Part shown: one piece after another, positions 3,267 to 51,379 of the stretch | Position numbering within the stretch: the first letter of the stretch is position 1 | Layout: every line of letters starts with the position of its first letter | Position numbers and translations under genes: made by a program | Notes under the pieces: model-generated | Databases searched by the model: none | The model's input: only the letters and a program-made list of their open reading frames with translations | Told to the model about the DNA's origin: nothing | From: a virus | Virus record (IMG/VR): IMGVR_UViG_3300025030_000054 | Coordinates: 1 to 64,000 of that record | DNA: 64,000 nt | Direction: 5' to 3' (one strand)

Positions 3267-3389
3267 GTCTTTTCTTGGGTTTAGGCAAAATAATTATTGT
3301 GGTTATTATTGGGTATGGTTGTGGGTAAGGGATTGGTAAGGCTGTACTTCAAGGCTATAATCTACCTCTAAGACCTTCGGCCCGACCCT

Positions 3390-3418
3390 AGTATAGCACG
3401 ATATCGTTCTTTTGTCAA
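3390..3418 (-). promoter_or_regulatory. Sigma70 promoter into non-coding hairpin/C-rich unit
   Basis: TTGACA-N17-TATACT with TG. Confidence 0.8.
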
Positions 3419-3450
3419 GTCTTTTATTTTTAATCTTGTAAATAAAAGAC

Positions 3451-3479
3451 TTGACAAAACCAAGATCTTGTGTTATAAT
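3451..3479 (+). promoter_or_regulatory. Sigma70 promoter into non-coding unit
   Basis: TTGACA-N17-TATAAT with TG. Confidence 0.85.
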
Positions 3480-3598
3480 AAGTCGAGCGTCAAGCGAAGA
3501 CTACCTATAGACTCTAAGGTTTGCTTTAAAGATTATCCTAATCCCTACCGTACCTTCTATAAACCCACCCAATAAAATTAACTAATTATTATTTGTAG

Positions 3599-3627
3599 TA
3601 ATAAATATTCCTATGGGCGAGTATATA
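3599..3627 (+). promoter_or_regulatory. Candidate phage-specific (late) promoter
   Basis: TAATAAA-N15-GTATATA upstream of the GIY-YIG endonuclease. Confidence 0.6.
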
Positions 3628-3683
3628 GTTTAGTATAACGCACTTTGTGTGCTTTAACTCCGCAACATAAAGGAACCTTATCA

Positions 3684-4682
3684 ATGAAAAATAATAACTG
3701 TTACCTGTACGTGTACACCGATCCACTAAAGCCCGGAAAATTTACCTACACAGATATAGGCATATCGTTTTTGTACGAACCTTTTTATGTAGGTAAAGGA
3801 TCTAGGCAACGTATGTTACAGCACATCCCAGAAGCCAAAAGAATAAATAAAACTTATAAACATAAGACTATAATAAATATAATAGATTCTGGATTAGACC
3901 CCAAAGACTACATTGTAAAAATTAAAAACAATCTTTCTGATGATGAAGCCTACCTCTTAGAAGAGCAGGTTGTAGACAGTATCGGACGTAAGCGAATAAA
4001 TAAAGGCCCACTCCTAAATATCAGGCCGGGAGGGGGTTGGATGACTTATAACGGCAACTCTAAACTATCCTACAAAGACAAACTAGATATAAAAGAATTA
4101 TATCGTTCTGGGATGTCGCCGATGGAAATCAAAGATATTTATAGTGTTTGTTATATTACTGTCTTAGTTGCTCTAAGAGAAGTTAATGCTGAAATTGTAC
4201 AAATATATGACAAAGTTAGAGTCTTCGATAAAGAATCAAGTAGACAAGTGGCTGATTTATACGCTTACGGATTTTCATCTCCTGAAATAGCCGAAATTTA
4301 TAACACATGTGAGGAGGTCGTCCTAAAAGCAGTTAAAGCTAATAATGTCGAGATTAGAGCTGGCAGATCTTTTACGAAACTTAGAACACTCAAAGATGAG
4401 ATAATATCTAAATATAATTCAGGAGCCTCTTTCGAAGAATTAGAAGAATTTTTTAGTACCGCATCTATCTTTATCGGAAAAATTTTGAGAGAGAACGGAG
4501 TACAAGTTAACCCGCCCAACTTTACAAAGACTTTGGAAACTAAGGTCATAAAACTATACCAATCAGGAAAAACCATGAAGCAAACTGGACTTGAAGTGGG
4601 TTTATCTATATGCCACGTAGAAAATATTTTAAAGATAAATAATATCAAAACTAGAGGCAGGAGCGCAGCAGTAAAAAAGTAG
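3684..4682 (+). CDS. GIY-YIG-like homing endonuclease with tandem HTH repeats
   Basis: YLYVY...FYVGKG...R...H...EAYLLE...LLN pattern; repeated helical HTH units; start moved to ATG 3684 by RBS AAGGA. Confidence 0.85.
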   Translation: MKNNNCYLYVYTDPLKPGKFTYTDIGISFLYEPFYVGKGSRQRMLQHIPEAKRINKTYKHKTIINIIDSGLDPKDYIVKIKNNLSDDEAYLLEEQVVDSIGRKRINKGPLLNIRPGGGWMTYNGNSKLSYKDKLDIKELYRSGMSPMEIKDIYSVCYITVLVALREVNAEIVQIYDKVRVFDKESSRQVADLYAYGFSSPEIAEIYNTCEEVVLKAVKANNVEIRAGRSFTKLRTLKDEIISKYNSGASFEELEEFFSTASIFIGKILRENGVQVNPPNFTKTLETKVIKLYQSGKTMKQTGLEVGLSICHVENILKINNIKTRGRSAAVKK

Positions 4683-4726
4683 CTCACCCACTCCTAAATT
4701 TATTTTCGCAATACTCAAAATAAAGC

Positions 4727-4755
4727 TTGACTTTTACCCACTCTTGTGTTATAAT
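4727..4755 (+). promoter_or_regulatory. Sigma70 promoter
   Basis: TTGACT-N17-TATAAT with TG. Confidence 0.8.
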
Positions 4756-4785
4756 GGTTGTATTGAATCACTAAAGGAGAAACAA

Positions 4786-5043
4786 ATGACAAACGCACCT
4801 ATCAATACAACTTCTATATTCCCTTCCGAATTTACTGACAGAGATAAGACTCTAATCTCTGAAACCGTAGAGCGACGTACCAAACTGCTTGAACTATTAC
4901 AGGCAAGTAATCTGGAAAGAATCGCTAAGTTGTCTAAAGCAATCAAAGAGAAGGAACGTGTAGAATCCTCTAAGAAGAATTCAGCTAGGTCCAAAAACAA
5001 AGCTGCTAAGAAAGCTAGAAAAATTAATAGGAGAAATAAATAA
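4786..5043 (+). CDS. Basic hypothetical protein
   Basis: RBS AAGGAG before ATG 4786; K/R-rich tail. Confidence 0.65.
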   Translation: MTNAPINTTSIFPSEFTDRDKTLISETVERRTKLLELLQASNLERIAKLSKAIKEKERVESSKKNSARSKNKAAKKARKINRRNK

Positions 5044-5264
5044 TGTGCCCACTGTTTGATTATAAATGTGAATCTTGTGACGAAATCATAGAAGATGTTT
5101 TCAAGCGTAGTACTAGCGACCCAGTTATTGAGTGCCCTGCCTGTGGCGCTGAAGTTACATTTAGGCACGCTCTTGTAGGTAGCTCGACGTTTAAACTGAA
5201 GGGCGCTGGCTGGTATAAGGACGGTTATAATAAAGATAACAACAATATTAATGTTAAGTATTGA
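5043..5264 (+). CDS. FmdB-family zinc-ribbon protein
   Basis: PLFDYKCESC...CPACG...FKLKGAGWYKDGY. Confidence 0.85.
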   Translation: MCPLFDYKCESCDEIIEDVFKRSTSDPVIECPACGAEVTFRHALVGSSTFKLKGAGWYKDGYNKDNNNINVKY

Positions 5265-5371
5265 TTTTAGGAATTCGGATAGGTAGAATTGGTAATTACC
5301 TATTTTACTGTTTGGAATTAATGTTTTAAATAATTGTTTAAATACTGTTTTAAATAATCCTCGGAGAGATT

Positions 5372-6742
5372 ATGCCAAAAACTTATGTGCTGGATACGAA
5401 CGTGCTTCTAGCTGACTCAGAAGCCTTTCAGAAATTTGAAGACAACGACCTTGTAATTCCTATCCCCGTCTTAGAGGAACTCGACAGATTCAAAAAAGAA
5501 ATGACAGAGATAGGAAGGAATGCTAGGCAGACTGCTAGAAATCTTGATGCACTCAGAGAACTTGGCGATTTGTCTGTGGGGGTTAAACTTCCTAGCGGTG
5601 GAACTATCAGAGTAGCAGTGGCATTATCTAGAGTACTCTGCAAATTACCTTTAGGGCTTGATGAAAATATACCTGACAATCAGATCTTAGCAGTGGCTGT
5701 AGACTGTCATGGAATTTTGGTATCTAGGGATGTTAACCTAAGAATCAAAGCATCGGCTGTTGGAGTACCTGCTGAAGATTATAAACATACCGCAGTAAAG
5801 GTTGATGAGTTCTATACAGGCACTGGGAGAGGTTGGGTGTCAGGTGAAACTCTTAGCAAAATCTACAGTGATAAGAAATTGAATTTGGAAGATGTGACTT
5901 TGGTTGATATGGAAGTTCCTTACCCAAATCAGTGCTTCACTGTTTATAGCATGGACAATGAGAAGCAAGCGGCTCTTACCAGATACGACGCAGTAATGAA
6001 AGAGTTTGTGCTTCTGCCAGCAGACCTTAAAACGCTTGGCTTGGTCCCTAAAAATGCTGAACAGAGTTATGCTTTGGATTTGATGCTTAATGAAAATATA
6101 AATCTTGTTTCAGTGATTGGTAGGGCGGGTAGTGGTAAGACTCTTTTAGCATTGGCCGCAGCACTGCATGGAGTACTTGAGACAAAAAGATTTACTAAGC
6201 TGCTAATTCTAAAACCTATAGTGAGTGTTGGAAACGCACATAAACTAGGGTACATTCCTGGATCAACGGAAATGAAGCTAGCACCTTGGATGGCCAGCTT
6301 CTTTGACAATATTTCGTTCATTATGGGCGAGCCTACTTTCGACGAAGCACCTCTGAAAAAATCTAAAAAGAAAGAATCATTTGAGGACAAAAGTGCTGCC
6401 AAATTAACTGCGGCAGAAGAGTTAATGGCGTTGGGGTTGCTTGAGTGCGGCAGCTTAGAAACACTACGTGGAAGGTCCTTGCCAAATCAAGCTATCATTA
6501 TCGATGAGAGTCAGCAGCTTACTAACCATGAATTGAAAACTATCATAACTAGGGCTGGAGAAGGTTCCTGCATTTTTATGCTGGGCGACATTTCTCAGGT
6601 AGATTTGCCGTACCTCAGTGAAGATAATAATGGCCTTGTCTACGTAGCTGACAGAATGAAGCACAGTGAGATTACTGCTCACATTACATTAGTTAAAACG
6701 GTTAGATCTAAACTTGCTGAACTTGCTGCGGAGTTACTGTGA
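5372..6742 (+). CDS. phoH: PIN-PhoH protein
   Basis: N-terminal PIN (YVLDTNVLL), Walker A GRAGSGKT, LRGRSL, IIDESQ, GDISQVD. Confidence 0.95.
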   Translation: MPKTYVLDTNVLLADSEAFQKFEDNDLVIPIPVLEELDRFKKEMTEIGRNARQTARNLDALRELGDLSVGVKLPSGGTIRVAVALSRVLCKLPLGLDENIPDNQILAVAVDCHGILVSRDVNLRIKASAVGVPAEDYKHTAVKVDEFYTGTGRGWVSGETLSKIYSDKKLNLEDVTLVDMEVPYPNQCFTVYSMDNEKQAALTRYDAVMKEFVLLPADLKTLGLVPKNAEQSYALDLMLNENINLVSVIGRAGSGKTLLALAAALHGVLETKRFTKLLILKPIVSVGNAHKLGYIPGSTEMKLAPWMASFFDNISFIMGEPTFDEAPLKKSKKKESFEDKSAAKLTAAEELMALGLLECGSLETLRGRSLPNQAIIIDESQQLTNHELKTIITRAGEGSCIFMLGDISQVDLPYLSEDNNGLVYVADRMKHSEITAHITLVKTVRSKLAELAAELL

Positions 6743-7019
6743 TAATTAAAGTAAGGAGAGGAATCCTACAATGCTACTAAAACTACAAAGGAAACTTAAC
6801 CTATACCCATTCTGTAAATTCAGCAAAACTAAAGGAGACAGACTCTGGTACATAACAGCCAAGCAAGGACATAGAGTTTACATTCCTTTCGGAGTTTCTA
6901 TAGCCAAATCTTTAGAAGGACCTTTCAAGATTGTTCTGTATAAATTTTACTTAGGACCTCTAGTTATTAATATAGGAAGAAAAATTTAAATTATTTTCCC
7001 CCAACCCCCAAAATAAAGC

Positions 7020-7049
7020 TTGACAAAACCCACTTCCGTGTGCTATAAT
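7020..7049 (+). promoter_or_regulatory. Sigma70 promoter
   Basis: TTGACA-N18-TATAAT with TG. Confidence 0.75.
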
Positions 7050-7055
7050 GTACCT

Positions 7056-7228
7056 ATAGCTCAGAGAACTAAAAGATTGCCTGAAGGTGTTACTTAATAT
7101 GGAGAGTAACTGGTGACTAGCAAGGATTCCTCCTATCTAAAGTTAGTCCACTTAATGTGTAAAAGCCTAATCTGTTAGTTCGGTGAAGGGGGCTGCTTCT
7201 AACTCAATTAGCAGCTCCCTTTTATTTT
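7056..7228 (+). ncRNA. Candidate structured leader/sRNA ending in an intrinsic terminator
   Basis: GAACTAA-A-AGATT (7066-7078) pairs with AATCT-G-TTAGTTC (7169-7181) and encloses two hairpins; terminator 7186-7221 plus T-tract. Confidence 0.45.
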
Positions 7229-7250
7229 ATCTAAAAGGAGAAAGATTAAA

Positions 7251-7739
7251 ATGTGGTGGAAAAAACTATTAGCAATTAAGGTATCACTTGTAGTAGCAGT
7301 ATTGGCAGTCCTCTTGGTAAACGCAACTGACAGGATACATGAGAGATCGCTTGAAGTAAAGTACCTAAAGCAACAGGTAGAGCTACACAAGAAATTTGAA
7401 ACAAGAATGATGGGCATGGAGTGTAAAGATTTAAGGTCTGTGAAAGTTACCGTAACATCATTCAACCCAGTCAAGAGGCAAACAGATAGTGAACCACTTA
7501 TCGGAGCATCTGGTGAATTAGTTACTCCGGGAATTGTGGCAATATCCAGAGACTTAACTAAGAAGTATGGTATCAAGTTAGGCGATAAGGTAGTTATTGA
7601 GGGATATGGAGTGTTCACTGTAAAAGATTTTACAAATTCTAGGTTCAGGAAACGTGTTGATGTGCTCTCACTCATCCCTGACTTTTCTAAGGAATTTGGC
7701 ATCAAGAGGGGTATTAACCTCTATTTTAATAAAAACTAG
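7251..7739 (+). CDS. 3D-domain cell-wall hydrolase with N-terminal signal/TM
   Basis: VTSFN...QTD...VAISRDL...G..VVIEGYG.FTVKD...RVDVL. Confidence 0.8.
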   Translation: MWWKKLLAIKVSLVVAVLAVLLVNATDRIHERSLEVKYLKQQVELHKKFETRMMGMECKDLRSVKVTVTSFNPVKRQTDSEPLIGASGELVTPGIVAISRDLTKKYGIKLGDKVVIEGYGVFTVKDFTNSRFRKRVDVLSLIPDFSKEFGIKRGINLYFNKN

Positions 7740-8108
7740 GAGAATCCAAATGACAATTAAAGAAATCGAAAAAGAAATAGCACTTATCAAAGAACTGCTG
7801 GAACTTAGAGGGAAACTTGGGGGCAATACTGAGGTAGTTACTACGGTTAACGCTACTATCACTGGCGGCCTCATTCCTAAAACAAAACCTGCTGTGTTCG
7901 GAGGTACTGGCTGGGTAGATTTTGACTATTATGACAAAGCTGCGCTAGCTGTTACCAGAAAGATTATGGAAAATGCAGCTAAAGAAGACAAAGGCTGGCC
8001 CTCTAGTGAAGAAGCTTGGAAAGATGTAGAGAAGCCTTTCTACAATGAAAATACCGGAGTACGGTTCGCTTGTACCTGCGGGTCGCGTAAATAAAAGGAA
8101 CCGATAAA

Positions 8109-8408
8109 ATGCTCAAGCAATATATTTACAGAAATCGAAATGGCAAGAGGCAGAGGGTTGGTGTGTTGGTAGGAACTACAGTGAAGAATCAGATTGTTCT
8201 AGGCTACTCCCTATGCTGCCCTGAAGACACCTTCGACAGAGACAAAGGACTAGCGATAGCACTTGGCAGAGCACTTAGCCCGAAACTCATAGGCTGTCCT
8301 CCATCAATTGAGAATGATGTTTGGGACTTTGCTCTCAGGTGTATCAAGTATTTTAAAGATGCTAGGATATTTGACGAAGACGATGATTTTAACATGATTG
8401 GAGAATAA
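8109..8408 (+). CDS. Phage protein with G.S.C..ED.FD...G..IAL.RA motif
   Basis: GYSLCCPEDTFDRDKGLAIALGRA. Confidence 0.6.
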   Translation: MLKQYIYRNRNGKRQRVGVLVGTTVKNQIVLGYSLCCPEDTFDRDKGLAIALGRALSPKLIGCPPSIENDVWDFALRCIKYFKDARIFDEDDDFNMIGE

Positions 8409-8741
8409 CTTGAAATACAAACTCTATAGATTCACAGTAATTGTAACCTCAATTTTCTTTATTTTTACAGCCCTTCCGTTCATTGCCTTAAGCCTTACCT
8501 CGGTAGCAGTCAAAACTTTATGTGATATCGTGCTAGATTTGATTGATGGTAACAGCCTAAGTAACTGGCTGGTAGGTAAAACTAATGAGGCTTTGGCTGA
8601 AGTTGAAGGTAAATATGCTAGCAAACCAGAAGAAAATGATGAAGAATAACCTGAAGAGAGCCTGTAAAATGGCTCTCTTTCCTTCATTTTATAGCAATTT
8701 ATACAAATAAATCTGTATAAAACCAATTTAGGAGGTATAAA

Positions 8742-8996
8742 ATGGTAGATACCTATAGAAGCAGAATCTGCCCTATTTGCTCAGGTGTTGTGGAATGTGA
8801 CCTTAGAGCAACCCAGACTGACTTAGATAACTCATTTAAAGTAGCGTTTACAGCAGTTTGTAGTAGGTGTGGCCTGAGCGTTGAAGGTAATAAGTCTAGC
8901 CTGTTTGAGCTGTTTAGTGAGGCTAAGGTTAAAGCTGTCGAAGAAGTTGATGACAAATGGGTGTATACCACGGCAACTTACAGGAGTCTAGTTTGA
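8742..8996 (+). CDS. Small zinc-finger protein
   Basis: CPICS...CSRCG; RBS AGGAGG. Confidence 0.6.
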   Translation: MVDTYRSRICPICSGVVECDLRATQTDLDNSFKVAFTAVCSRCGLSVEGNKSSLFELFSEAKVKAVEEVDDKWVYTTATYRSLV

Positions 8997-9571
8997 AAAT
9001 CTTAGTCTCCTGCGAATTTTCTGGAACTGTGAGGGACGCGTTTATAGCCAAAGGTCATGACGCTATGAGTTGTGACCTGTTACCTACTGAAAGTGAAGGA
9101 CCTCATTACCAAGGCGACGTGAGGGACATACTAGATGGCGGTTGGGACCTTATGATAGCCCACCCTCCATGTGACCATTTAGCAGTTTCTGGAGCAGCTT
9201 GGTTTAAACAGAAACAGGAGGACGGTAGGCAGCAACAAGGCATAGATTTCTTCATGCTGATGGTAAATGCTCCTATCCCTAAGAAGTGCATAGAGAACCC
9301 TGTGGGCATTATGTCTAGCCGGTATAGGAAGCCTGACCAGATAGTTAACCCTTGGCAGTTTGGTGATTCTATTTCTAAGAAGACTTGTCTATGGCTATTT
9401 AACTTACCGCCTTTGGTACCTACGGATATAGTGGAACCTAGCAAGTACATAACCAGTCCAAGTGGTAAGAGGTATCCTGAGTGGAATTGGAATACTGGTG
9501 GAGGGTCTGGTAAGAAACGTTCTATGTTCTTTGAGGGAATGGCTAAGGCGATGGCAGATCAGTGGGGTTAG
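8993..9571 (+). CDS. Phage DNA cytosine-5 methyltransferase-like protein
   Basis: KILVSCEFSG, catalytic HPPC, ENPVG; TTG start at 8993 with RBS AGGAG. Confidence 0.8.
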   Translation: MKILVSCEFSGTVRDAFIAKGHDAMSCDLLPTESEGPHYQGDVRDILDGGWDLMIAHPPCDHLAVSGAAWFKQKQEDGRQQQGIDFFMLMVNAPIPKKCIENPVGIMSSRYRKPDQIVNPWQFGDSISKKTCLWLFNLPPLVPTDIVEPSKYITSPSGKRYPEWNWNTGGGSGKKRSMFFEGMAKAMADQWG

Positions 9572-9618
9572 CTAGGCGGTACTATATAACATTTCAAAAA
9601 TACCTTTCATGGAATTTC

Positions 9619-9657
9619 GGCCCTATTCTTAATTGAGTAGGGTCATTTTTGTTTTTG
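9619..9657 (+). terminator. Intrinsic terminator
   Basis: GGCCCTATTC...GAGTAGGGTC hairpin followed by T-rich tract. Confidence 0.65.
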
Positions 9658-9724
9658 GATTTAGTTTAGCTGTTTTGTGAGTTGTAGTGCTAGTAGTTTT
9701 GTGGGGATGTTTTAGGTAACTTGG

Positions 9725-9866
9725 AGAGTAGTGTTGCAGGTAATTTGGCGAGTAGTATTGTGAGTAGTGTTGCAGGTAATTTGGCGAGTAGTATGGCAAG
9801 TAATGCATTCAGTAATGTGCTAAGTAGTATGGCAAGTAGTATGGCAAGTAGTATGGCAAGTAGTGT
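9725..9866. repeat. Degenerate 12-bp-period tandem array (AAGTAGTATGGC-like; 36-bp higher-order duplicate)
   Basis: Read directly. Confidence 0.9.
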
Positions 9867-10080
9867 TATAGGTAATCTTTAAAGCTATATAGGAAGTAGT
9901 ATTTTAAATCTTGGGTAAGTTGAGGGGTTTCTCGTTTCTCATTAAAAGAAAATAATTTGCCTCCGCCCCCACCTGGGCACATTTCCCTTGTAATCAAACA
10001 GTGTTTTAGTTTATAATATACTCCTGACGCCTCGATCCCGGACACAATATGCATATATAGATATATGGATTATCATATGT

Positions 10081-10168
10081 CTTGATCCCGACCTGTCGAG
10101 CTGGACCTTGATCCCGACCTGTCGAGCTGGACCTTGATCCCGACCTGTCGAGCTGGACCTTGATCCCG
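10081..10168. repeat. 26-bp tandem repeat CTTGATCCCGACCTGTCGAGCTGGAC x3 plus partial copy
   Basis: Exact copies at 10081, 10107, 10133; partial at 10159. Confidence 0.95.
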
Positions 10169-10472
10169 TCAACCAACGCGCCAGTTAACTAAAAATGAAC
10201 CTATGCAAAATAAACTCTTGTAATCCATGTAGCATTGTGGTAATCTTTCTTATACGGTTTCACTCGTTCTTTTCACTCTCTGAACCGCTTCACCGGTACA
10301 CCTTGTTACATTATCTTTTAGTGAGATTTTTCTAATCTTTCTGGATATGGGATTGTATGCAATAATCGTGCCGGATAGTATCTCATTAAAACTTTCTAAT
10401 GAACCTGGAAAATGGTAATTACCAATTTGAGAGGCTGGCAAGAGAGGGTAAAAAAATAATTGAAAGAAAAGG

Positions 10473-10501
10473 TTGACACTGATTAGGGCATGTGGTAAAA
10501 A
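10473..10501 (+). promoter_or_regulatory. Sigma70 promoter
   Basis: TTGACA-N17-TAAAAT with TG. Confidence 0.75.
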
Positions 10502-10540
10502 TATAGCCAGGTAGTTAATCAAGTTGTTTGTAGGATTCTA

Positions 10541-10762
10541 ATGAAAGCACGGCGCATATTCAATCCAGACAAAAGACACAATGCGAAGATTGAACAGCTT
10601 TTGACAGAACTTCAGAAAGATGGTTTTACAGGTTTTACTAGGGAAGCTATCAAAGCAAATGACATTTATGTATATACCAATGAGGATAAGAATATCGGTT
10701 TACAATGTTGTGAGAATGAAGGAGAGGATGACAGTATTATGTGGCTGTATCCTGAAAAATAA
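10541..10762 (+). CDS. Hypothetical early protein
   Basis: ORF directly after a promoter. Confidence 0.6.
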   Translation: MKARRIFNPDKRHNAKIEQLLTELQKDGFTGFTREAIKANDIYVYTNEDKNIGLQCCENEGEDDSIMWLYPEK

Positions 10763-10765
10763 ACC

Positions 10766-10794
10766 TTGACACTCTCTAAACGATCTGGTACTCT
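10766..10794 (+). promoter_or_regulatory. Sigma70 promoter
   Basis: TTGACA-N17-TACTCT with TG. Confidence 0.6.
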
Positions 10795-10865
10795 TCTAAT
10801 CAGCTACACGAACAAACCACTAAACAGTCTACTAGCCAAACAGGTAGACAGGGGGAGAAAGAAAA

Positions 10866-11129
10866 ATGAGATACAAATTTAACGAACTTCCGACAATCAA
10901 TTTCCCTAAAAATCAAAAGGTTGTTCAGTATAACAGCCTCACGATTGATGGTGTAACAGAAACCGTCAGGATCATTGCTAGACTTGAATTTGTAAACGAA
11001 CTTTTCTACTACTTGTTAGATGGTAGAATCATTGTTTACAACCACAAAACTTTCACAGTGTACCAGAAAGGCAAAAGGATAATCGAGGCAGAATCTTTTC
11101 TTTACCTTTCCAGCACCCCTGAAAAATAG
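10866..11129 (+). CDS. Hypothetical early protein
   Basis: RBS GGGGAG; downstream hairpin 11139-11175. Confidence 0.6.
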   Translation: MRYKFNELPTINFPKNQKVVQYNSLTIDGVTETVRIIARLEFVNELFYYLLDGRIIVYNHKTFTVYQKGKRIIEAESFLYLSSTPEK

Positions 11130-11282
11130 ATTTTAACACTGCCTAGCATATTCCCTTAAAAGAATGTGCTAGGCAAATGTGATAAATTGTTTTTCGGTCT
11201 TAGTAAACAACCACAAAAGGTCACAGTCTGATTACCTTAGAAAACAGACACTACAGCCATAAAGGGCAAAGGAAACGAAGAC

Positions 11283-12263
11283 ATGAGAAAAACGATTGTA
11301 GCGAACATTGCCGCCATGATGTACTTCGCAGCAAACACCGAAAACGTCGGAAATGTGCCTGTAGACGAAACCAAAACGGAAGAAGCCGGAAAGGTCCAGG
11401 AAGTCCCCGAAAAAGCCAAGGGCAAAATCGGAACAGTCAATCCGGCAAGAGCAGCAGCGGCAGAAAAGGAAAATGAACTTGTGTCGGATGTGCTCAAGGC
11501 AAAAGACGAATTCAAGAAACCGGCGAACGATGAAGAACTGAAAACGCTGATCCACGAGCAATCGACCTACTTCAAAGAAATCGGCGACAATATCAACGGT
11601 GCAAGGATTTCGTCGGCGAAGTTGTGGCCTGTGTGGGAAAATCTCACGCCGATGACTTGGAACGAAAAATCCAACAAACTGGACCTCGGGAAGTTCTGCA
11701 AATCAATCTGGAACATGCTTGAGCCGGAGGTTAAACTTGCTGATCCCATGAAACCCAACACGTTCTTTGCTTGGGCTGAAGCAAGGAAGTACGGCAATAG
11801 CGCGGCCATGACCATCGAAAACATCAGGAACTATGTTAGGAACAACAAAGAGAAACTTTACCCGCATTGGTTCCCTGAGGTAGAAAAGAAGGAAGAAGTA
11901 AACAAAGGCGTGAAAGAAACCATAGACGCCGCTAAAAAAGCAAAACGGGAAGTAGAGGACGTCCTGAAACTCCAATATCTCCCGAAAGAGCAGTATGTCA
12001 TGCTCAACGAGAAAGGGGAGATTATCGAGGGTGCTAAGCCTGTAACCTTGGCCGACCTGCTCAAGGGTCTCATAGAAGAGATTAACAGCCATTTGCCCAA
12101 AGAAGAAACGCCACAAGCAAAGGCCGATAAGAACTATGAGGAGGAGTTGAAAGAACTTCAGGCGGAGAAAGAACAGCTTGCCAAGGAAAAAGCTGAACTT
12201 GAAAAGGAAAAAGCGAAGCTTGCAAAACAGGCGAAACATGCTGAAAAATCGGAAAAGAAATAA
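11283..12263 (+). CDS. Charged protein with C-terminal coiled coil, atypical codon usage
   Basis: 326 aa ORF, visibly more C/G at third positions than neighbours; flanked by hairpins. Confidence 0.8.
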   Translation: MRKTIVANIAAMMYFAANTENVGNVPVDETKTEEAGKVQEVPEKAKGKIGTVNPARAAAAEKENELVSDVLKAKDEFKKPANDEELKTLIHEQSTYFKEIGDNINGARISSAKLWPVWENLTPMTWNEKSNKLDLGKFCKSIWNMLEPEVKLADPMKPNTFFAWAEARKYGNSAAMTIENIRNYVRNNKEKLYPHWFPEVEKKEEVNKGVKETIDAAKKAKREVEDVLKLQYLPKEQYVMLNEKGEIIEGAKPVTLADLLKGLIEEINSHLPKEETPQAKADKNYEEELKELQAEKEQLAKEKAELEKEKAKLAKQAKHAEKSEKK

Positions 12264-12409
12264 GCTGTAAGGTGGTATGGAAGGTAGGCGTTTTTAGTCT
12301 ACCTTCCTGCTATCCTTTTAATCTCTCAGCCTAGGATTTGCTAGGACGCTAAAAGGATAGTAGGAAAATTCCAGAACAGTCAATCGTTCAAACGGATTGA
12401 CAAAGGAGA

Positions 12410-12616
12410 TTGAAAATGTATAAAATCGTACAAGCTTTCTATTCGGCTAATCGGAAAAACACTTTATGGGAAGAATGGAACGAATTTGTTAGATATGAAA
12501 CCAAAGAATTAGCAGAAAAAGCATTGCCTGCGATTATGGAAGAATCTGAAAAACAAGGGAATTATAGACCCCTTAGGATTGTTAAAACTAGAAACAAAAA
12601 ATTGGTAATTACCTAA
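12410..12616 (+). CDS. Hypothetical protein ending in palindrome-encoded KLVIT*
   Basis: RBS AAGGAG; stop codon lies in the GGTAATTACCTAA motif. Confidence 0.65.
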   Translation: MKMYKIVQAFYSANRKNTLWEEWNEFVRYETKELAEKALPAIMEESEKQGNYRPLRIVKTRNKKLVIT

Positions 12617-12846
12617 AACATAATCTGCTAAATCACAACAAAGCAGATACAAGGGGATTAAATGAAGAAATTACAGGTTCTCTTACATGGCGAATGGAAA
12701 TTAGTACAATGTGCCTTTCTTAACTGTCATTACCCTATAACCACTTCAGATAGAGATTTAGCTAGAACTTCGGACGATATAGCTATATTTCAGTCTCATT
12801 TCCCTACTCTTGAATTTAGGCCTGAACCTTAAAACAAAGCGTTAAC

Positions 12847-12892
12847 CAAAAGGCATTAGCCCAATTTACATAAAAGCTAATGCCTTTTGTTT
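12847..12892 (+). terminator. Intrinsic (possibly bidirectional) terminator
   Basis: CAAAAGGCATTAGC...GCTAATGCCTTTTG. Confidence 0.75.
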
Positions 12893-13680
12893 GATCCTTT
12901 ACATGCAAATACTTGAATTAATAGATGTTTTCGAGGATGCCCTACAAAGGCATTTAAACTGGCTACCCTTATCACGGTATTCAGGAAACCTTTTAGGCCA
13001 CTTAAAACGCAATTTAGGCGCATTTAAAGCCATTTTAGGGTATACCTTACTATGCCCCAAAAATAATAGGCACCTTAAAACGCAAATTTCAGGCTATTTT
13101 GTTGCAAACTTTAACTATAACTAACGGGATACCTGAATAACAGCCAGGTATTATGTAAGTATAGCTATATCTGTATACTTTTATGGCTATAGTTGCGCCT
13201 ATTGGGTAATTTGCTAACAGAAATTGGTAATTACCTATTTTGAGTGAATGTCTGGTTAAAGGATAGATGAAATTGGTAATTACCTATTTTAGAGGCTGGC
13301 AAGATGGATTGTCTAAGTGACTTGCTAAATTACTTACAGGATATTCCAGTATTCTACTAAAAACCTTGTAAGTAATTTAGCAGGTAGTTTAGAGAGTATA
13401 CAGAGCCGGGAAAAATTGGTAATTACCTATTTAGAGGCCGAAAAGAGGGATTTTGGGGTAAATTGGGTGAATGACCTTGGGAAACCCTTGTAAGTACCTG
13501 ATATTACGTTGTCGGGTGGCTGGAAATGGACCTTTTAAAAGGGGTCGTTTTGGGCGAAGAGTTTTCATCAAAATGGTTGATAGTAGTGGAAAAGGTACCC
13601 CTATAAAAGTATGGCTAAAAGGTTGATGATTTCTTACGCGGAAAAGAGAGGACGCCAGTTTTGCGGGGTTCTGTAAGTTA

Positions 13681-13732
13681 TTGAAATCACTACTTGAAAT
13701 CACTACTTGAAATCACTACTTGAAATACTACC
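13681..13732. repeat. 13-bp tandem repeat TTGAAATCACTAC x3 plus degenerate copy
   Basis: Read directly. Confidence 0.9.
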
Positions 13733-13784
13733 CTAAAATCACTTGAATAATTACCTAAAATATTATCTGTTAGACTGTTAGTTA

Positions 13785-13892
13785 TATTACTTGGAATATT
13801 ACTTGGAATATTACTTGGAATATTACTTGGAATATTACTTGGAATATTACTTGGAATATTACTTGGAAGATTACTTGGAAGATTACTTGGAA
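13785..13892. repeat. 12-bp tandem repeat (T/G)ATTACTTGGAA x9
   Basis: Read directly. Confidence 0.95.
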
Positions 13893-14386
13893 AACAATCC
13901 AGTCAATTTCGGGCCACGGTAAATAGTATCTAAAGTTATGTCTAAAGTTGTTATAGGCTGTTCTTTGGCTGTTTACAAAATTATCCAGGAAATTATCTTT
14001 GAAAACTATTTAGCATACAACCAAGAAACATCTAAATTGCTAGCTAAATCATTTTCAGAATTAACATCCTACCCTCACAATGTAAATTTAGGTAATTACC
14101 AATTTTTCAGACTCATAGAAAGGATACAAAACAAATTGCTACGCTTTAACAGAGAACTCCTAAACAAACTAAGCTCCGCTAACAAAACTCAGGAGAACAA
14201 CAAAATGAGAGCCGTACTTTCACCCTCGGAAAAAGACACTATCCCAAGAGTTTACGCGGATCTTACGATTCTTTGCCAAATTACTAAGCTGTTCACTGTA
14301 GAAGAGCTTAAAGTTTTAGAATCGGCTCAAAAGATTATCGGCCAGGTTATTGATGAAGATCGTTATTTGTAGTTGGTTAGCTGACT

Positions 14387-14587
14387 TAAACAACTATTTA
14401 GCTCCGCTACATAATGTTTTAAATTAGATAAAATCACTCCTCGTACCACTCAATGCACCACTTAACAGGTTAGCAATTTGTACCAGCTAACAAGGAGGCT
14501 CGCCATGAAAAATTCCCACATTGTTTCTAGTTTTACCATCTCTGTATTACCTAAACAACTATTTAGCTCCGCTACATAATGTTTTAA
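14387..14587. repeat. 36-bp direct repeat TAAACAACTATTTAGCTCCGCTACATAATGTTTTAA
   Basis: Copies at 14387-14422 and 14552-14587; partial third copy near 14161. Confidence 0.9.
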
Positions 14588-14874
14588 GCAACTCATCAAA
14601 ATTCATAAAATAGGTAATTACCAATTCAACGAAGCTAGCAGTTTTAACAAGCTAACTAGGAGGATTACCATGAACATAACACGGAAAGTAATGCAACAAG
14701 TACTGCAAAACGTCCTGGAAAGAGGAAATGGCGTAGTTTCTGGCGAACCTTTTGCTCTTGATTTTGAAGGCCACATAGTAGACGTTCTAGGAAATAGACT
14801 GGAAACAACCAAGCAAAGAGAGTCCAGGTTAATCTTGGAAATGCTTAGTCTTTCTTCCAATAGGAGGACTAACC

Positions 14875-15321
14875 ATGCCTAAGAAAATAATGACTTTGGG
14901 AAAACCTCGTATAGAGAAACGTCTCAAGTCTAACCTGATAGATGAAATCTCTAGAATGACCAATCTCATGCACCCTCGTCATCATAAATGGGCCTATTGT
15001 TGCCAGTTAGATGAAAAGGGCAACATAAAAATGTTTGACCAATGGGACCATACGATTTTGGTATGTAACTACTTTCTGATAACTAAGGCTCTAATTGACG
15101 AGACAGGTAGCTATGTTCTGGAAACTTTCTATGATTATGAACTGTTGCCTGAAGATTTGGTTCAGATAGAGAAAGATGTAAACATAGCTTTGATAGATAA
15201 CATCCATTTCTGGCGCAGAGAGTCAAAGTTTGTATTTTGGCTTGAGCGCAATGCTGCTAGACTAAATGGAATGTCGCCCAACGTAGCTATGGCGTACATT
15301 CGGAAAGAGTTTTACGTGTGA
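14875..15321 (+). CDS. Hypothetical protein
   Basis: RBS AGGAGG, 148 aa. Confidence 0.65.
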   Translation: MPKKIMTLGKPRIEKRLKSNLIDEISRMTNLMHPRHHKWAYCCQLDEKGNIKMFDQWDHTILVCNYFLITKALIDETGSYVLETFYDYELLPEDLVQIEKDVNIALIDNIHFWRRESKFVFWLERNAARLNGMSPNVAMAYIRKEFYV

Positions 15322-16638: not shown

Positions 16639-16719
16639 CCTCTAAAACGAACGAGGATTGCCTGTAGAGGGACTTTAGAGGCTACCCTATAGGATGGTAT
16701 GGGTTATTGATAAAGTGGC
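16639..16719 (+). repeat. Double-hairpin dispersed element, copy 1
   Basis: Near-identical to the reverse complement of 49324-49361; related to 17037-17118. Confidence 0.8.
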
Positions 16720-17036
16720 TTTAAAACCACTAAAATTGACACAAATAAGGAGAAGTGGCTATGAGAAAGCACGCACTAATAATAACCGTAAGCAATTGCT
16801 ACAAAGCTTTGGACAGCGAGTTTTTAGTTTTAGATTTGGAAACAAATTTTAGCTGGGTTGATGCTTGCAACCTTTCAGCAGTTGAGTGGTTTTACAACTA
16901 AACAAGGAGACTGCCATGAGTGACTCGGTTGCGTGGTGTATCGTAGGAGTACTAACTGTATTTGATGCTGTAGTGGCGTACATCTTGGTAAAGCCGCTAT
17001 TCAAGAAATAACCACCATCATTCTCCTTCACAAATA

Positions 17037-17118
17037 GCCCTAGAACGCACGAGGATCGTCTCTAGGGCCACTTTAAAGCCTCCCCCATACCTTCCTATAG
17101 GGTAATCTTTAAAGTGGC
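17037..17118 (+). repeat. Double-hairpin dispersed element, copy 2
   Basis: GCCCTAGA/TCTAGGGC and GCCACTTTAAAG/CTTTAAAGTGGC stems. Confidence 0.8.
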
Positions 17119-17858: not shown

Positions 17859-17894
17859 AATTGGTAGTTACCTAAATAATTTGGAGGATAAACA

Positions 17895-18919: not shown

Positions 18920-18948
18920 ATTATACCACAAGAATCCACTTTTGTCAA
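18920..18948 (-). promoter_or_regulatory. Antisense sigma70 promoter into non-coding unit
   Basis: TTGACA-N17-TATAAT with TG; 18890-18925 is the exact reverse complement of 3474-3509. Confidence 0.85.
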
Positions 18949-47352: not shown

Positions 47353-47985
47353 GGAGGTACCTAAAAATGATAATTGACTACTGCAAAGATGGAGAAGCTG
47401 TTGGGGATCTTAGTGCTAAAGATTACCTAAGAAAGAAATATGCAGAATACCCAGATTGGCACATTCACACTTCTTCAGAATGTGTTGTTGATGCAGCTAG
47501 GGCCATGGTGGCCGAAGGTGAACTTCCGGCTGATAAAATAAAGATTTGGCATGAGCACAAGTTCGTTAGTAAGATAGATAAATACGGTAAACTGACTCAG
47601 TGGCCTAAAGGACTTTGCGACTTTTCCTTTGATTGCAATGTGAGAATTCTAAAAGCGGCTTCTGTCAATAGGAAAACACCATGAAAATGCAATCTACCAG
47701 AGAAAAATACTTAGTAACTAAAATGGGAATCCAATACAAACACTGCACAGATAACTACGTATTTACTGGTCAGGGTATGTGGACCGAAGGAGAGTATTTT
47801 TACAAACTATTTAAATGGGCACAGAACAGTTCTTGGTGGGGTTATTTGAAAAGGGATTATATAGGCGACGAGGGGGATGGTATTTTAGGCCCGCTTTACT
47901 ATCCTATTGACGAATCCTACATAGACGCTGAGATGCTGGCTAATGCAATCTACTCCTATTTTCTTAAGAAAGAGGAGGTTCCATT

Positions 47986-49302
47986 TTGATAGAGGTTAGG
48001 CATGTCGCTCGCGTCCAACTACCTGAAGATGAAAATGTAAAAGCCCTGATTTTAAACCTATTTGCGTACACTTCCAGAAATGGAGAATCTTTTCACAACT
48101 ACTCTTACAAAGATGGAGTAGCATATTTTCCCCCTTGTCTTCCAAAATTAGAGGTAGTTGCTAGTCTGTTAAATGAAACGGTAGTGGATAACAGGAGCCA
48201 TGGGCAGACTATATCCTCGCCTTTCATACTAAATCCAGAATTCACTTTAAGGGATTATCAAGTTGAACCTGCCAGACAACTTTTCGACGACACAAGAGAT
48301 AATAAATCAGCAACTTTAAGTGCAGGCTGTGGAACTGGAAAAACTATAGTGGTATCTCACGCGGCTGGTCGCTTAAATAAGAAGATCCTAGGAATTTTAG
48401 ATCAGTCGAACTTATTCCAAAATTGGGCGATTGCTTTTGATCTTATCTACGGCAAAAAAATTCAGCAACTAAAATCAACGGACATTGTATTCTCAGACGT
48501 ATGCATAACAACGTTTCAGATGCTACACAGGAACCCTGAGTTACTTTCTAGGATTAGGAAAGAATTCGGCTGTCTAATTTTAGATGAGTGCCATGTTGTA
48601 AAGGCTACTACCTTCAAACAAGTTTTATCCAGACTAGATACGCAATACCGTGTAGCATGTACGGCCACTTTCTTCAACAAAAACCTACCTTTAGGGATTC
48701 TTGAGGACTGGCTTGCTCCGGTGTCTGTTAAGATGGTAGATCAATATGCCTTAACTCCAGAGATACGTTGGATAGACACAGGAGTCATTTGGTCTTCAGA
48801 AGAACCTATGGACTATGCTTCCTACGTTCTTCCAGCACTTGCAGCAGATGCCAAAAGAAACGCTGTTATATTTAGTATACTAAAACAATGCCTAGAAGAG
48901 AAACGTAGAACTATAGTTTGCTGCATCACAGTAAAACAGGCTAACTTTCTACATGAGATTATGGTCAAATCTGGCGCACGATCTACCGTGTACACTGGAA
49001 GTACTACTGCTAAGAGGGACTTGGAAGTCAAAACTAAAATGAATTCTGGAGAGTTAGACTTCATTTTTGCTTCCATGAAATTTAATAAGGGAACAGATAT
49101 AGATACAGCGGATTGCATGGTTTTGGTAAGACCCAACAACAATCTTAAAGACACTCAACAATTAACTGGGCGAGTAGTTCGGAAGGTTGAAGGGAAACCA
49201 AAGCCCATAGTTTATGATTTTGCTGATGTAGGTTACTTGGCAGAAATCTTCGTAAGAAACCGTAAAAAGTTCTATAGGAGCCTTAACTACGAAGAAGGGT
49301 AG
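47986..49302 (+). CDS. SF2 DExH helicase
   Basis: LRDYQ, GCGTGKT, DECH, TAT, QLTGRVVR. Confidence 0.92.
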   Translation: MIEVRHVARVQLPEDENVKALILNLFAYTSRNGESFHNYSYKDGVAYFPPCLPKLEVVASLLNETVVDNRSHGQTISSPFILNPEFTLRDYQVEPARQLFDDTRDNKSATLSAGCGTGKTIVVSHAAGRLNKKILGILDQSNLFQNWAIAFDLIYGKKIQQLKSTDIVFSDVCITTFQMLHRNPELLSRIRKEFGCLILDECHVVKATTFKQVLSRLDTQYRVACTATFFNKNLPLGILEDWLAPVSVKMVDQYALTPEIRWIDTGVIWSSEEPMDYASYVLPALAADAKRNAVIFSILKQCLEEKRRTIVCCITVKQANFLHEIMVKSGARSTVYTGSTTAKRDLEVKTKMNSGELDFIFASMKFNKGTDIDTADCMVLVRPNNNLKDTQQLTGRVVRKVEGKPKPIVYDFADVGYLAEIFVRNRKKFYRSLNYEEG

Positions 49303-49304
49303 GC

Positions 49305-49361
49305 TAGGGTATGGGGGAGTTAAAAAGTCCCTCTACAAGCAATCCTCGTTCGTTTTAGAGG
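49305..49361 (-). repeat. Double-hairpin dispersed element, copy 3 (partial)
   Basis: 37/38 identity to 16639-16676, then CTCCCCCATACC as in copy 2. Confidence 0.8.
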
Positions 49362-49630
49362 TGGTTGTGGAGGATAATATGGAGGAGTTTTATTATGAGA
49401 AATATTGTGACTGAAGAAGAGGCAGCTACGAAACGGTGCCCTCAACTCATGGGTAGGTCTGATCTTGTAAATCGGTATTGCAAAGGATCTGACTGCATGG
49501 CTTGGCGGTGGCATTCTGAGGAGACACTAGAGAAGGGCTATGGAGAGAAAACTGTGGTACTAAAATATGGGTACTGTGGTAAGGTGCCTTTAACATGAAA
49601 TTGGTAATTACCTAAAAAGGAGAAAATAAT

Positions 49631-50380
49631 ATGGCATTAGTTTCGGGCGACAGCCATGGTAACCTCAACCGCTTAAAAGCATTCCTGAGATACAAACCTG
49701 AAGAGGAACACATTCTAACAGGAGACCTAATGGACTCCTACATAGCGTCCGACACAGGTATTATAGAGACCTTTCAGTTGTTTCAAAAATCAGATGCATT
49801 AGCAACATGGTCGAACCATGATACGGTTTACCTAAAAAACTGTCCTGGACAACTGATGTGCTCAGGTCATCGTACTAACCCAATTTTCGGTCATCTGATA
49901 AACGGCAGCAAGGATAAATACAGAGGGTCGTTTGTAAGAGATGGCTACCTGATAACACATGCAGGAGTTGTGGAAGAGATTGGTAGTAGGTTCTCTGACC
50001 TAGAATCTTTAAGCGAGTATATAAACACTGAGATAGATAAGATTGTCTATAACGAGGAAATTTGGGTAGATAGTCCTTTGTCGGATGTGTTTAATATCTC
50101 TGTTGTGAGAGGAGGTTACCATAAGTACGGCGGACCTCTATGGGCTGATTACAGAAGAGAAAAATATGATTGCACCAAGAATCAAATCTTTGGACACTCT
50201 CATTCGGAAACTTTGAAAATCTTTAACTACGGAGATGATGAAAACGAGAGGAAGCATGTCGCTGTAGATTGTAGTGAGTTTAGCTGTTTTAACACCAAGA
50301 CTGGCGCAGCAGAGGATTTCATGTTTCCTGCTTTTAAAGATGGTCCTGCGGTAAGAAAACTGTTGGAGGTCGGGTACTAA
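49631..50380 (+). CDS. Calcineurin-like metallophosphoesterase
   Basis: GDSHG, GDLMD, SNHD, THAG, FGHSH. Confidence 0.88.
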   Translation: MALVSGDSHGNLNRLKAFLRYKPEEEHILTGDLMDSYIASDTGIIETFQLFQKSDALATWSNHDTVYLKNCPGQLMCSGHRTNPIFGHLINGSKDKYRGSFVRDGYLITHAGVVEEIGSRFSDLESLSEYINTEIDKIVYNEEIWVDSPLSDVFNISVVRGGYHKYGGPLWADYRREKYDCTKNQIFGHSHSETLKIFNYGDDENERKHVAVDCSEFSCFNTKTGAAEDFMFPAFKDGPAVRKLLEVGY

Positions 50381-51350
50381 TGGTCAGAAAACAATTTACT
50401 TTGTTGGATTCTTTAAGATATCCAGAGAGCTACAATTCAAATTATCTTGAAGGCTCATATACAGAGGACGGTTCATTACATTTTTATGGGTATTGGGATG
50501 AACGTAAGAAATGTTGGATACCTCTGAGCGAGCTGAAATACTATTCGGAATAGGGGAGGGTTATGATACGTGTAGAAGTAGACTTATCTGACATTCCTAA
50601 ATGGGCACAGACTAATGATACCGACGCCTTCTCGTGCTATATTGCTGGAGAACTCAGTGCAGCAGGTATTCCTATAGTTGGAAGTCCTCTGCTGTCTAGG
50701 GTAGATTTTACTAAAGGAACGTTACTAACTTGGTACGACTATGAAAATGATAGGAATATTTACTTATGGAAGTAGAGGAGGACAAAATGAAATGGAAAAA
50801 GAAAGAGAAGATTTATCCTAAGGAATACTCGACTAGACAAAGATATATTTTTACTTGGTATCCTGTAACAATAAGCGGAGAAACTCGTTGGCTATGGTTT
50901 TACAAAGTGGAGGAGATACATTATTACGGTACGTGCAGGCTTCTTGGAGATGAGAAATTCTATCCCGAGTTTGGATTTTGGAGCTACAGCCGGTGGATTG
51001 ACTAAAGGAGGGTAAAATGAATTCTAAAAAAGAGATTTGGATAACTAATAGCGGTGAAGTTCTAGATGTTGATGAGATGACCGAAGATCATGTTAGAAAT
51101 ACCCTGAAGATGTTGATAAAGCAAATTAGGGAAGGCAAGCTTGGTTGTCTGGGGTACCATCAGGATAGGATAAATATGGAGAGGCGTATGGAAGAACTGA
51201 GGGAGATTCATCCTAGTCTTACTACTGGGATTAGGGAGTATGGTGTGGATGGTGGGTAGGGGTTGTGTTAGGGAGTGGGTAGGGACTAAGGCAGTTGTTA
51301 GGTAAACCTTATAGTCTATATTATATATCTCGTCCGAAACGGACGACCTT

Positions 51351-51379
51351 ATTATACCACAGAAATGGCTTTTTGTCAA
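51351..51379 (-). promoter_or_regulatory. Antisense sigma70 promoter into non-coding unit
   Basis: TTGACA-N17-TATAAT with TG; hairpin TCGTCCG-TTT-CGGACGA at the expected start site. Confidence 0.85.

Follow-up and report, generated by a model that had tools for sequence, protein, structure and literature searches.

Strong promoters leading into gene-less hairpin cassettes recur at transcription module borders of an uncultured, distantly T5-like phage

The virus contig IMG/VR IMGVR_UViG_3300025030_000054 (below called G000) is a single contig of 105,687 bp, and its first 64 kb (positions 1 to 64,000, hereafter the window) contain four very strong sigma70-type promoters that each lead into non-coding DNA. 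The four units formed in this way (named A to D; Table 1) are members of a family that has 4 copies in G000, 4 in the related phage G001, and 5 in the related phage G002, always with an identical order of parts: behind the promoter come a hairpin, a short box (ACCTATA / TATAG..AAGGTT), and a pyrimidine-rich stretch free of open reading frames (ORFs). Some of the copies occupy syntenic positions, and both the pairing of the hairpin and the composition of the tail have been kept across the family. By analogy, the units resemble gene-less versions of the promoter-early stem-loop (PeSL) cassettes of T4-type phages. Among the explanations weighed below we favor, tentatively and at somewhat less than even confidence, that they are self-limiting cassettes of this kind whose role is to punctuate transcription modules or insulate them from each other; that they initiate, depend on Rho, and insulate is deduced from sequence.

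Judged by its terminase, G000 is an uncultured phage with a distant relationship to phage T5: Its large terminase is ~30% identical to those of T5-like phages, and other products encoded in the window are a small terminase, PhoH, a CCA-adding enzyme, homing-endonuclease-like proteins, a DnaB-like helicase, a primase, and a family A DNA polymerase. No tRNA genes were found in the window, similarity searches returned no DNA match of the units, their neighboring genes, or the contig among cultured phages, and a search of 185,579 prokaryote genomes revealed no relatives. The TTGACA/TGnTATAAT promoters, strong GGAGG ribosome-binding sites, and the Atlas neighbors of the CCA-adding enzyme weakly hint at a Bacillota host. 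Our comparison set consisted of two complete 113-kb IMG/VR contigs, G001 and G002 (terminases 74% and 73% identical to that of G000), an 18.5-kb contig of a close strain (S1; DNA ~94% identical in the flanking genes), and three more distant contigs (L032, L033, and L116; terminases 45-60% identical). The nearest terminases that protein searches revealed, P0002-P0007, are 76-79% identical.

The four promoters had been pointed out in an earlier note on this DNA, and all of them proved to be real. Those of units A, B, and C match TTGACA-17-TATAAT at 12/12 positions and that of unit D at 11/12; all four carry the TG of an extended -10 element, are preceded by an A-rich upstream (UP) element, and are the strongest promoters of G000. 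The class as such is larger than these four, though, because six further strong promoters belong to it (3266(-), 4727(+), 7020(+), 51496(+), 65492(+), and 79768(+)). Overall, G000 contains 11 matches of at least 11/12 with the TG when 0.17 were expected from first-order Markov simulations, and one of them, at 70609(-), resembles a chance hit. G001 and G002 have 12 promoters of the class each, and a reversed-pattern control gave 0. The unit promoters are also repeats of one another: Those of D and A are inverted copies with 41-nt arms, and a direct repeat of 42 nt unites those of D, B, and C. We could reproduce the 36/36 identity of positions 3474-3509 with the reverse complement of 18890-18925 and found it to be the core of a wider inverted similarity between units A and B that spans 118 nt at 79% (3423-3540 versus 18859-18976). 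Likewise, ATAGACT(C/A)TAAGGTTT is present in both the 3.5-kb and the 51.3-kb unit.

In all 13 units of the three phages, the 42 nt behind the -10 element contain a hairpin with a folding energy of -8.3 to -19.7 kcal/mol, and the dyads that the note had placed at the start sites of the G000 units are all there (Table 1). Among the other strong-promoter matches, 20 of 22 fold at only -0.1 to -6.6 kcal/mol, and the two exceptions (-6.8 and -8.7), at 79768(+) and G002 59885(+), head a different ORF-free class. The stems vary widely (GTC/GAC, CTTC/GAAG, CATC/GATG, CGTTCCG/CGGAACG, and TCGTCCG/CGGACGA), with three different hairpin sequences among the four units of G000 alone. Since every unit folds nevertheless, it is the pairing and not the sequence that is conserved. 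Larger structures did not emerge, as whole-unit folds in G000 were no better than those of shuffled sequences (z of -0.5 to -1.2), eight units yielded no shared structure in a consensus fold, and pairing of the box with the tail occurs in some units (G001_55315, G001_79085, A, and C) but is inconsistent across the family. Rfam assigned the units to no family at gathering or relaxed thresholds; sub-threshold hits of miRNA models at 3393-3480 were an artifact of the inverted promoter pair only.

Three positions of the units are shared between genomes. Unit B corresponds to G002_106408, both following the gene of a small Cys-rich protein (47% identity, E 8e-26), and the counterpart of unit C, G001_36249, likewise lies upstream of the helicase gene in divergent orientation. 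Unit D has counterparts in both relatives, G001_92340 and G002_92114, and all three are situated 152-167 bp upstream of the proximal promoter of the sigma region-4-like gene that heads the terminase operon; this gene is 56% identical to its G001 counterpart. In the more distant relatives L032, L033, and L116, the vicinity of the terminase contains a single promoter of the class or none and no units, which indicates that the cassette is specific to a clade. Within this clade, the copies exchange parts: Unit D of S1 has a swapped hairpin and a tail with a 20-mer that G000 has in its unit C, and S1 also carries an additional tandem unit, while G001 has two units with an identical 3' module and two with an identical 5' module in different combinations. 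Modules shared in such varying combinations among copies and strains suggest that they recombine.

The tails stand out by composition. The best 80-nt windows of units B and C (C39/G2) are the most extreme C-minus-G windows genome-wide, and those of unit D (C27/G4) and unit A (C22/G6) rank in the top 0.4% and top 2.9%, respectively. Eight further units without a terminator fall into the top 0.2-7%. The only bodies without C bias are those of two G001 units, 36249 and 55315 (27th-32nd percentile), and precisely these two end, according to their predicted folds, in a GC-rich hairpin followed by GUUUUAAU, although a simple terminator scan left the one of them that it covered unflagged. These modeled ends make them promoter-to-terminator units that would release discrete small RNAs of ~110-125 nt. 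In G000, the 3' intrinsic terminator expected of an independent small-RNA gene was absent from the regions scanned behind units B and C: On the minus strand, scans of 1-20000 and 47500-51400 found none downstream of unit B before 14192 and none within 3.8 kb of unit C. The family of small RNAs suggested earlier thus holds as a non-coding family, now extended to three phages, and becomes one of discrete small RNAs only in the two G001 units. Given that the units ending in a terminator lack the C bias that the others have, the simplest explanation is that the tail is itself the stop signal, i.e., a candidate Rho-utilization (rut) tract. A stretch of at least 70-80 nt with C well above G, as expected of rut sites, is present in units B, C, and D, with unit A reaching only C22/G6, and the tails are predicted to be unpaired and are untranslated. 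Their alignment is lost even between orthologous units; what persists is the composition (mostly G-poor and C-rich) and short words. TACCC occurs 16 times when 1.3 are expected, in 10 of 12 tails and with 1-3 copies per tail, and the tail of unit D in S1 has reached C40/G0 in 80 nt. Rho polices antisense and untranslated transcription across bacteria, with some lineages lacking it (PMC12360218).

That the C-rich tracts have neither ribosome-binding sites nor ORFs was largely borne out: Units B and C have no Shine-Dalgarno-led frame in their first 160 nt, and unit D has one weak candidate, a 23-codon TTG frame behind AAGG. The first Shine-Dalgarno-led ORF begins more than 200 nt downstream of units A and D and more than 1.2 kb downstream of units B and C, so that none of these four has a Shine-Dalgarno sequence and start codon directly behind it. 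No reading frame is conserved between units, and a translated micro-ORF as an explanation of the units is therefore unsupported.

The units of G000, at 3.4, 18.9, and 51.3 kb, mark the borders of the packaging operon, the first early block, a paralogue-rich block, and the replication block. Unit C indeed heads the replication block with its DnaB-like helicase, primase, and family A polymerase, and of the two units said to be antisense to all local genes, B and C do fire against the surrounding plus-strand genes, while D and A diverge from each other. All four have a promoter-like site or the beginning of the next operon at their back, as do most units of the relatives. Away from the terminase-proximal region, B, C, three G001 units, and two G002 units sit between co-directional blocks and fire at the end of the upstream block, with the exception of G002_31726, which appears to lead directly into a small gene. 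On the opposite strand, the complement of the -10 element (ATTATA) comes behind the hairpin, and for unit C and G001_36249 this arrangement was flagged as terminator-like for the oncoming operon. D and A are each located upstream of a second promoter (3266-3238(-) and 4727-4755(+), respectively) that directly precedes genes.

We interpret the units as copies of a clade-specific, recombining, non-coding early transcription cassette. In this proposed mechanism, a UP element and a near-consensus extended -10 promoter would recruit RNA polymerase with the primary sigma factor of the host, a hairpin lies at or beside the start, and an AU-rich TATAG/AAGGTT box leads over to an unstructured, C-rich, G-poor, and untranslated tail of 50-180 nt. 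Host RNA polymerase would fire the units right after infection, and Rho would load on the rut-like tail and halt the transcript within a few hundred nucleotides, with two G001 units probably using an intrinsic terminator in place of the Rho stop. Each unit would thus yield a short RNA without silencing the genes that it faces, and in several units the hairpin with ATTATA may serve as a terminator for the oncoming operon. It is the head-on placement at module borders together with this reverse-strand reading that makes directional punctuation or insulation the most likely role in our view.

Several observations weigh against this interpretation. The comparison is limited to three diverged genomes and one close strain. 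Insulation does not explain the five terminase-proximal units that face no oncoming operon (A, D, G001_92340, G002_92114, and G002_92167), and the phage uses ordinary intrinsic terminators elsewhere (8653-8680 and 9619-9644), so that a promoter would not be needed merely to end an operon. Three or four units of the relatives have no convincing partner promoter, and the G002 units as well as two G001 units have a U-poor tail behind the hairpin on the reverse strand. Some of the 5' arm is located before the expected start in units A and B as well as two G001 units, so that more than one strand or molecule may be the one that uses the hairpin. The tail of unit A is only moderately C-rich, and a role as rut site would hold only in a host that encodes Rho. 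Finally, a hairpin at the 5' end is a classic RNA stabilizer, and such a stable structure suggests an RNA that is meant to last and thereby favors a role in trans.

Such a trans-acting function is the strongest of the alternatives and one that we regard as possible, if on the unlikely side. The units would then produce abundant early RNAs, protected by the hairpin, whose open C-rich tail binds and titrates a host factor with a preference for C-rich RNA lacking structure (with Rho as obvious candidate) or pairs with G-rich sites such as Shine-Dalgarno regions. This would fit the use of the strongest promoters of the genome, the hairpin at the predicted 5' end, and two G001 units that look like complete small-RNA genes from promoter to terminator, and it would explain why TACCC is enriched, as in a sponge RNA, while the remainder of the tails diverges and why the composition is kept in all contexts including units that face no operon. 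However, the two discrete G001 RNAs are just the ones that are not C-rich, 1-3 TACCC per tail are few, translation initiation regions show no enrichment of the complement GGGTA in any of the three phages, and CCUCC-type anti-Shine-Dalgarno motifs are not among the enriched words. Moreover, no defined 3' end was found in G000, and no seed is conserved between orthologous units. A more specific variant, which we consider unlikely, is that the units are aimed at host termination itself: Abundant, 5'-protected rut RNAs might sequester Rho (or a different protein with affinity for open C-rich RNA) or engage it wrongly, and the G-rich reverse strand, unusable by Rho, might let sense transcription cross untranslated gaps. 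This would amount to a combined directional "Rho valve" and decoy, as has not been described for any phage. By contrast, the idea that the units are mere leftovers, i.e., orphan promoter and stem-loop cassettes from PeSL-like recombination that only provide homology for shuffling, strikes us as very unlikely. Module exchange is certainly visible (the 36/36 match of A and B, the G001 combinations, and the extra tandem unit and unit C 20-mer in S1), homing endonuclease genes adjoin two units, and the relatives with terminases of 45-60% identity have no units beside the terminase. Yet neutral decay would hardly preserve three syntenic positions across genomes with terminases of 73-74% identity, hairpin pairing with different sequences, and an extreme, direction-specific depletion of G that has been kept or even sharpened despite sequence turnover.

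The remaining alternatives explain only some of the units or some of their parts. As antitermination or leader elements akin to lambda PR'-6S/qut, nut, or HK022 put, the units would stop by default in the tail and later be read through, by means of a phage factor or the RNA itself, into the packaging operon (D) or into long antisense RNAs (B and C). D, A, and their orthologues do always precede long operons with conserved tandem promoters spaced 152-167 bp apart, besides the hairpin and a short conserved box, TATA words resembling a -10 element occur in the early transcribed region, and the first gene of the D operon encodes a sigma region-4-like helix-turn-helix (HTH) protein. We nevertheless judge this quite unlikely, as it fits only the D and A units, and there a second promoter of full strength between unit and operon makes read-through unnecessary; B, C, and their orthologues head no operon and aim at the 3' ends of opposing ones. 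In addition, the box is only loosely boxA-like by eye (GCCUUUAA versus GCUCUUUAA), three different hairpins in G000 would ill suit a single N-like reader or the one hairpin type that the nut or put sites of a phage would share, and a gene for an N- or Q-like protein did not come to light. Replication origins primed by transcription, known from T7, T4 (oriF/oriG), and ColE1, where the unit transcript would open the DNA or prime the leading strand, had also been considered in the earlier note and found no positive support here; we rate them as very improbable indeed. Unit C and its G001 orthologue lie beside the helicase-primase-polymerase block, transcription would start from strong promoters and displace a non-template strand free of G and of folds, and an AT-rich stretch follows unit A. 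But it follows unit A only, no iterons were found in the units, and the RNA is not purine-rich as would be expected at such an origin: It is pyrimidine-rich (C/A/U-rich with 2-8% G) on a purine-rich template, the least favorable combination for a persistent RNA-DNA hybrid by established hybrid thermodynamics. Nor would an origin be expected in 4-5 copies per genome with a pair of them before the packaging operon or tolerate that an intrinsic terminator replaces the tail in G001, and the cumulative GC skew merely tracks gene orientation. Extremely improbable, in our estimate, is a DNA-level element on the G-rich strand such as a G-quadruplex, an i-motif, or a Chi-like recombination signal. GGG runs do occur on the template strand in B and C, along with TGGTGG- and TGGAGG-like words, and the copies recombine, but no unit of the three genomes contains a canonical G3-N1-7 x4 motif, C3 runs are few in the tails of the relatives, and any such element (Chi-like words included) leaves promoter and hairpin unexplained.

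Among known systems, the PeSL of the T4-type phages RB49 and phi1 (Arbiol et al. 2010, PMC2839356) are most similar to the cassettes proposed here. In these, a very strong sigma-70-type early promoter with AT-rich DNA upstream is accompanied by a stable stem-loop (immediately behind the -10 element in one subclass, as in the units) that acts as terminator or attenuator of incoming transcription, and their near-identical copies recombine and thereby shuffle modules. The AT-rich upstream region with strong -35 and -10 elements is found in our units, the stem-loop in all 13 of them, and near-identical copies with apparent recombination in the 36/36 match, the 118 nt at 79%, and the module swaps. 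Yet PeSL have the Shine-Dalgarno sequence and ATG of a gene directly behind them, run with the gene flow, and number ~50 per genome, whereas the units are gene-less, have a C-rich tail of 50-180 nt, mostly point against the gene flow, number 4-5 per genome, and belong to a distant T5-like lineage. Rut sites such as lambda tR1 (reviewed in PMC12360218) are, like the tails, free of structure and translation over at least 80 nt and much richer in C than in G, but they end a gene or a regulated leader. In the units, the rut-like tract directly follows the promoter without an intrinsic terminator (which substitutes for it in a relative) and would form the whole product of a dedicated strong promoter.

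Other systems share single aspects. Lambda PR' with 6S RNA and tR' resembles unit D in having a strong promoter and a short non-coding transcript upstream of packaging or late genes, but it is a single copy with an intrinsic terminator, Q-dependent read-through, and no second promoter, whereas a full promoter follows the tail of the units and other copies point away from any operon. Convergent interference of pR and pL in coliphage 186 (PMC5001618) also involves a strong promoter directed head-on into an oncoming transcription unit. There, both promoters express genes and form a developmental switch, while the opposing transcript of the units is non-coding and apparently stops early. C-rich small RNAs of Bacillota (RsaE/RoxS type) are likewise short, non-coding, and equipped with exposed C-rich motifs, but these are few loops in a folded, terminator-ended RNA that pair with Shine-Dalgarno regions; the tract of the units is long and unfolded, anti-Shine-Dalgarno words are not enriched in it, and no target enrichment was found. 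The stable RNAs of T5 (RNAI, RNAIII, RNAX, and others), finally, are non-coding RNAs from strong promoters in a T5-type genome but G-rich or balanced, folded, partly tRNA-like, and located in the tRNA cluster, with no likeness to the units in sequence or composition.

Early promoters of phages are normally read as gene switches. Here, the strongest ones of the genome are spent on non-coding and apparently self-stopping RNAs, and this layout has been kept in three related phages despite sequence turnover. If the units are insulators, they would show a large phage of virulent type partitioning its transcription via host Rho and head-on promoters; if they act in trans, they would represent a new kind of phage take-over RNA. 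In either case, the cassette is a compact natural part comprising promoter, 5' hairpin, and directional stop that is open to study in synthetic constructs even though the phage is uncultured.

Table 1. Coordinates of the four units, their parts, and neighboring features in the window (matches of promoters refer to TTGACA-17-TATAAT).
Feature	Position	Strand	Remarks
Large terminase gene	47-1624	(-)
Proximal promoter of the sigma-like gene/TerS/TerL operon	3238-3266	(-)	12/12; 152 bp downstream of the D promoter
Unit D box and tail	3270-3370	(-)	Box 3340-3370; C-rich/G-poor tail, reaching the next promoter
Unit D start-site hairpin	3371-3383	(-)	GGGCC-GAA-GGTCT
Unit D promoter	3390-3418	(-)	TTGACA-17-TATACT, TG-extended, A-rich UP element
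Unit A promoter	3451-3479	(+)	12/12
Unit A hairpin	3481-3502	(+)	AGTC-GA-GC..GC-GAA-GACT, same as that of unit B
Unit A box and tail	3503-3577	(+)	Box ACCTATAGACTCTAAGGTTTGC; moderately C-rich tail
Homing-endonuclease-like gene	3685-4682	(+)	Between unit A and the gene-proximal promoter 4727-4755(+)
Related hairpin-less unit	7020-7230	(+)	12/12 promoter, box, structured leader, intrinsic terminator
Unit B box and tail	18699-18896	(-)	Box 18861-18896; 177-nt C-rich tail, predicted unpaired
Unit B hairpin	18897-18918	(-)	Followed by TTATTATA on the + strand (complement of the -10)
Unit B promoter	18920-18948	(-)	12/12; faces the + operon ending at 18720
Back-to-back partner promoter of unit B	18957-18984	(+)	TTTGCA-16-TATAAT, 10/12; next + operon from 19042
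Unit C box and tail	51213-51329	(-)	Box 51301-51329; 103-nt C-rich tail; antisense overlap with the last codons of gene 51017-51259
Unit C hairpin	51330-51346	(-)	TCGTCCG-TTT-CGGACGA; + strand flagged terminator-like, tail CCTTATTATA
Unit C promoter	51351-51379	(-)	12/12; faces the + operon ending at 51259
Divergent partner promoter of unit C	51496-51525	(+)	11/12; toward the replication block
Homing endonuclease gene	51519-52841	(-)	Between the 51496 promoter and the helicase gene

Around the units, the two homing-endonuclease-like genes of the window each part a promoter from the genes that it serves in the relatives, where a unit directly precedes the second promoter with no gene in between, unlike unit A in G000. 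A 15-bp inverted repeat (GTCAAGAGAATTATA ... TATAATTCTCTTGAC) at 51459-51500 lies just past the stop codon of the endonuclease gene near unit C and overlaps the -35 element of the 51496(+) promoter. The first gene of the terminase operon, 2779-3168(-), encodes a protein of 129 aa with a C-terminal HTH of sigma region-4/LuxR type (PHROG sigma-factor hits, E ~5e-5). The hairpin-less unit at 7020 carries the ACCTATAG..AGATTGCCT..AAGGT box of the family at 7052-7088, followed by an ORF-free leader of ~190 nt with a strong intrinsic terminator (7186-7230) right before the ribosome-binding site of gene 7251-7739; the leader (7020-7250(+)) could be an attenuator, a riboregulator, or a small RNA.

Two promoters of the same class outside the window head elements of their own. 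At G000 65492-65650(+), the strong promoter is followed by a 5'-proximal strong Shine-Dalgarno sequence, a tiny ORF (7 codons; 17 in G001), and a CA-rich, G-poor spacer before the real ribosome-binding site of a gene of 290 aa. This element, with orthologues at G001 26467(-) and G002 44637(+), looks like a 5' stabilizer or a combination of leader peptide and rut attenuator. In the class represented by G000 79768-80560(+) and G002 59885(+), more than 700 ORF-free nt with ~31-nt tandem repeats (CAGACCTTCAGAAGACTTTCCATACTACTTG) come after a strong promoter and a hairpin, which makes it another conserved non-coding class.

Besides the units, a second promoter-like class, GTAATAAA-N16/17-TATATAAT(A)AG, is found at 3193(-), 3622(+), 28224(-), 52913(-), and 58819(+) as well as, outside the window, at 75562(+). 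It precedes homing endonuclease genes, the sigma-like gene, and a few others and is a candidate phage-specific (middle or late) promoter. The box of the units as a copy of this class (GTAATAAA-N16-TATATAAT) was rejected, since the box lacks the upstream element. G000 contains the palindrome GGTAATTACC 26 times in exact form, embedded in AAAT(T/A)GGTAATTACC(T/A)AA, and 23 of these copies lie in the window (5291-51443; e.g., 17347, 21258, and 49603). Most copies are located 10-25 nt upstream of ribosome-binding sites. In its place, GAACATGTTC occurs 13 times in G001, and no 10-mer dominates in this way in G002; the palindrome looks like a genome-specific intergenic operator or processing site. 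A link of the TTACC words in the tails to this palindrome was dropped, since the palindrome differs in G001 and none is prominent in G002 while the tails keep the words.

With regard to the contig itself, in S1 (L001 11625-15358) ~3.7 kb separate the sequences found at the two ends of G000 (window position 1 and G000 105687), and G000 may therefore be incomplete or permuted at its ends. A G-free tract of 104 nt with 3.4 tandem copies of a 23-nt unit is located at 27057-27160(-) between the convergent genes 25964-27064(+) and 27333-28193(-). The first early block contains long tandem arrays at 9708-9899, 10081-10168, and 13681-13902 (periods of 12, 36, 26, 13, and 12 nt), some of them in stretches with small minus-strand ORFs.

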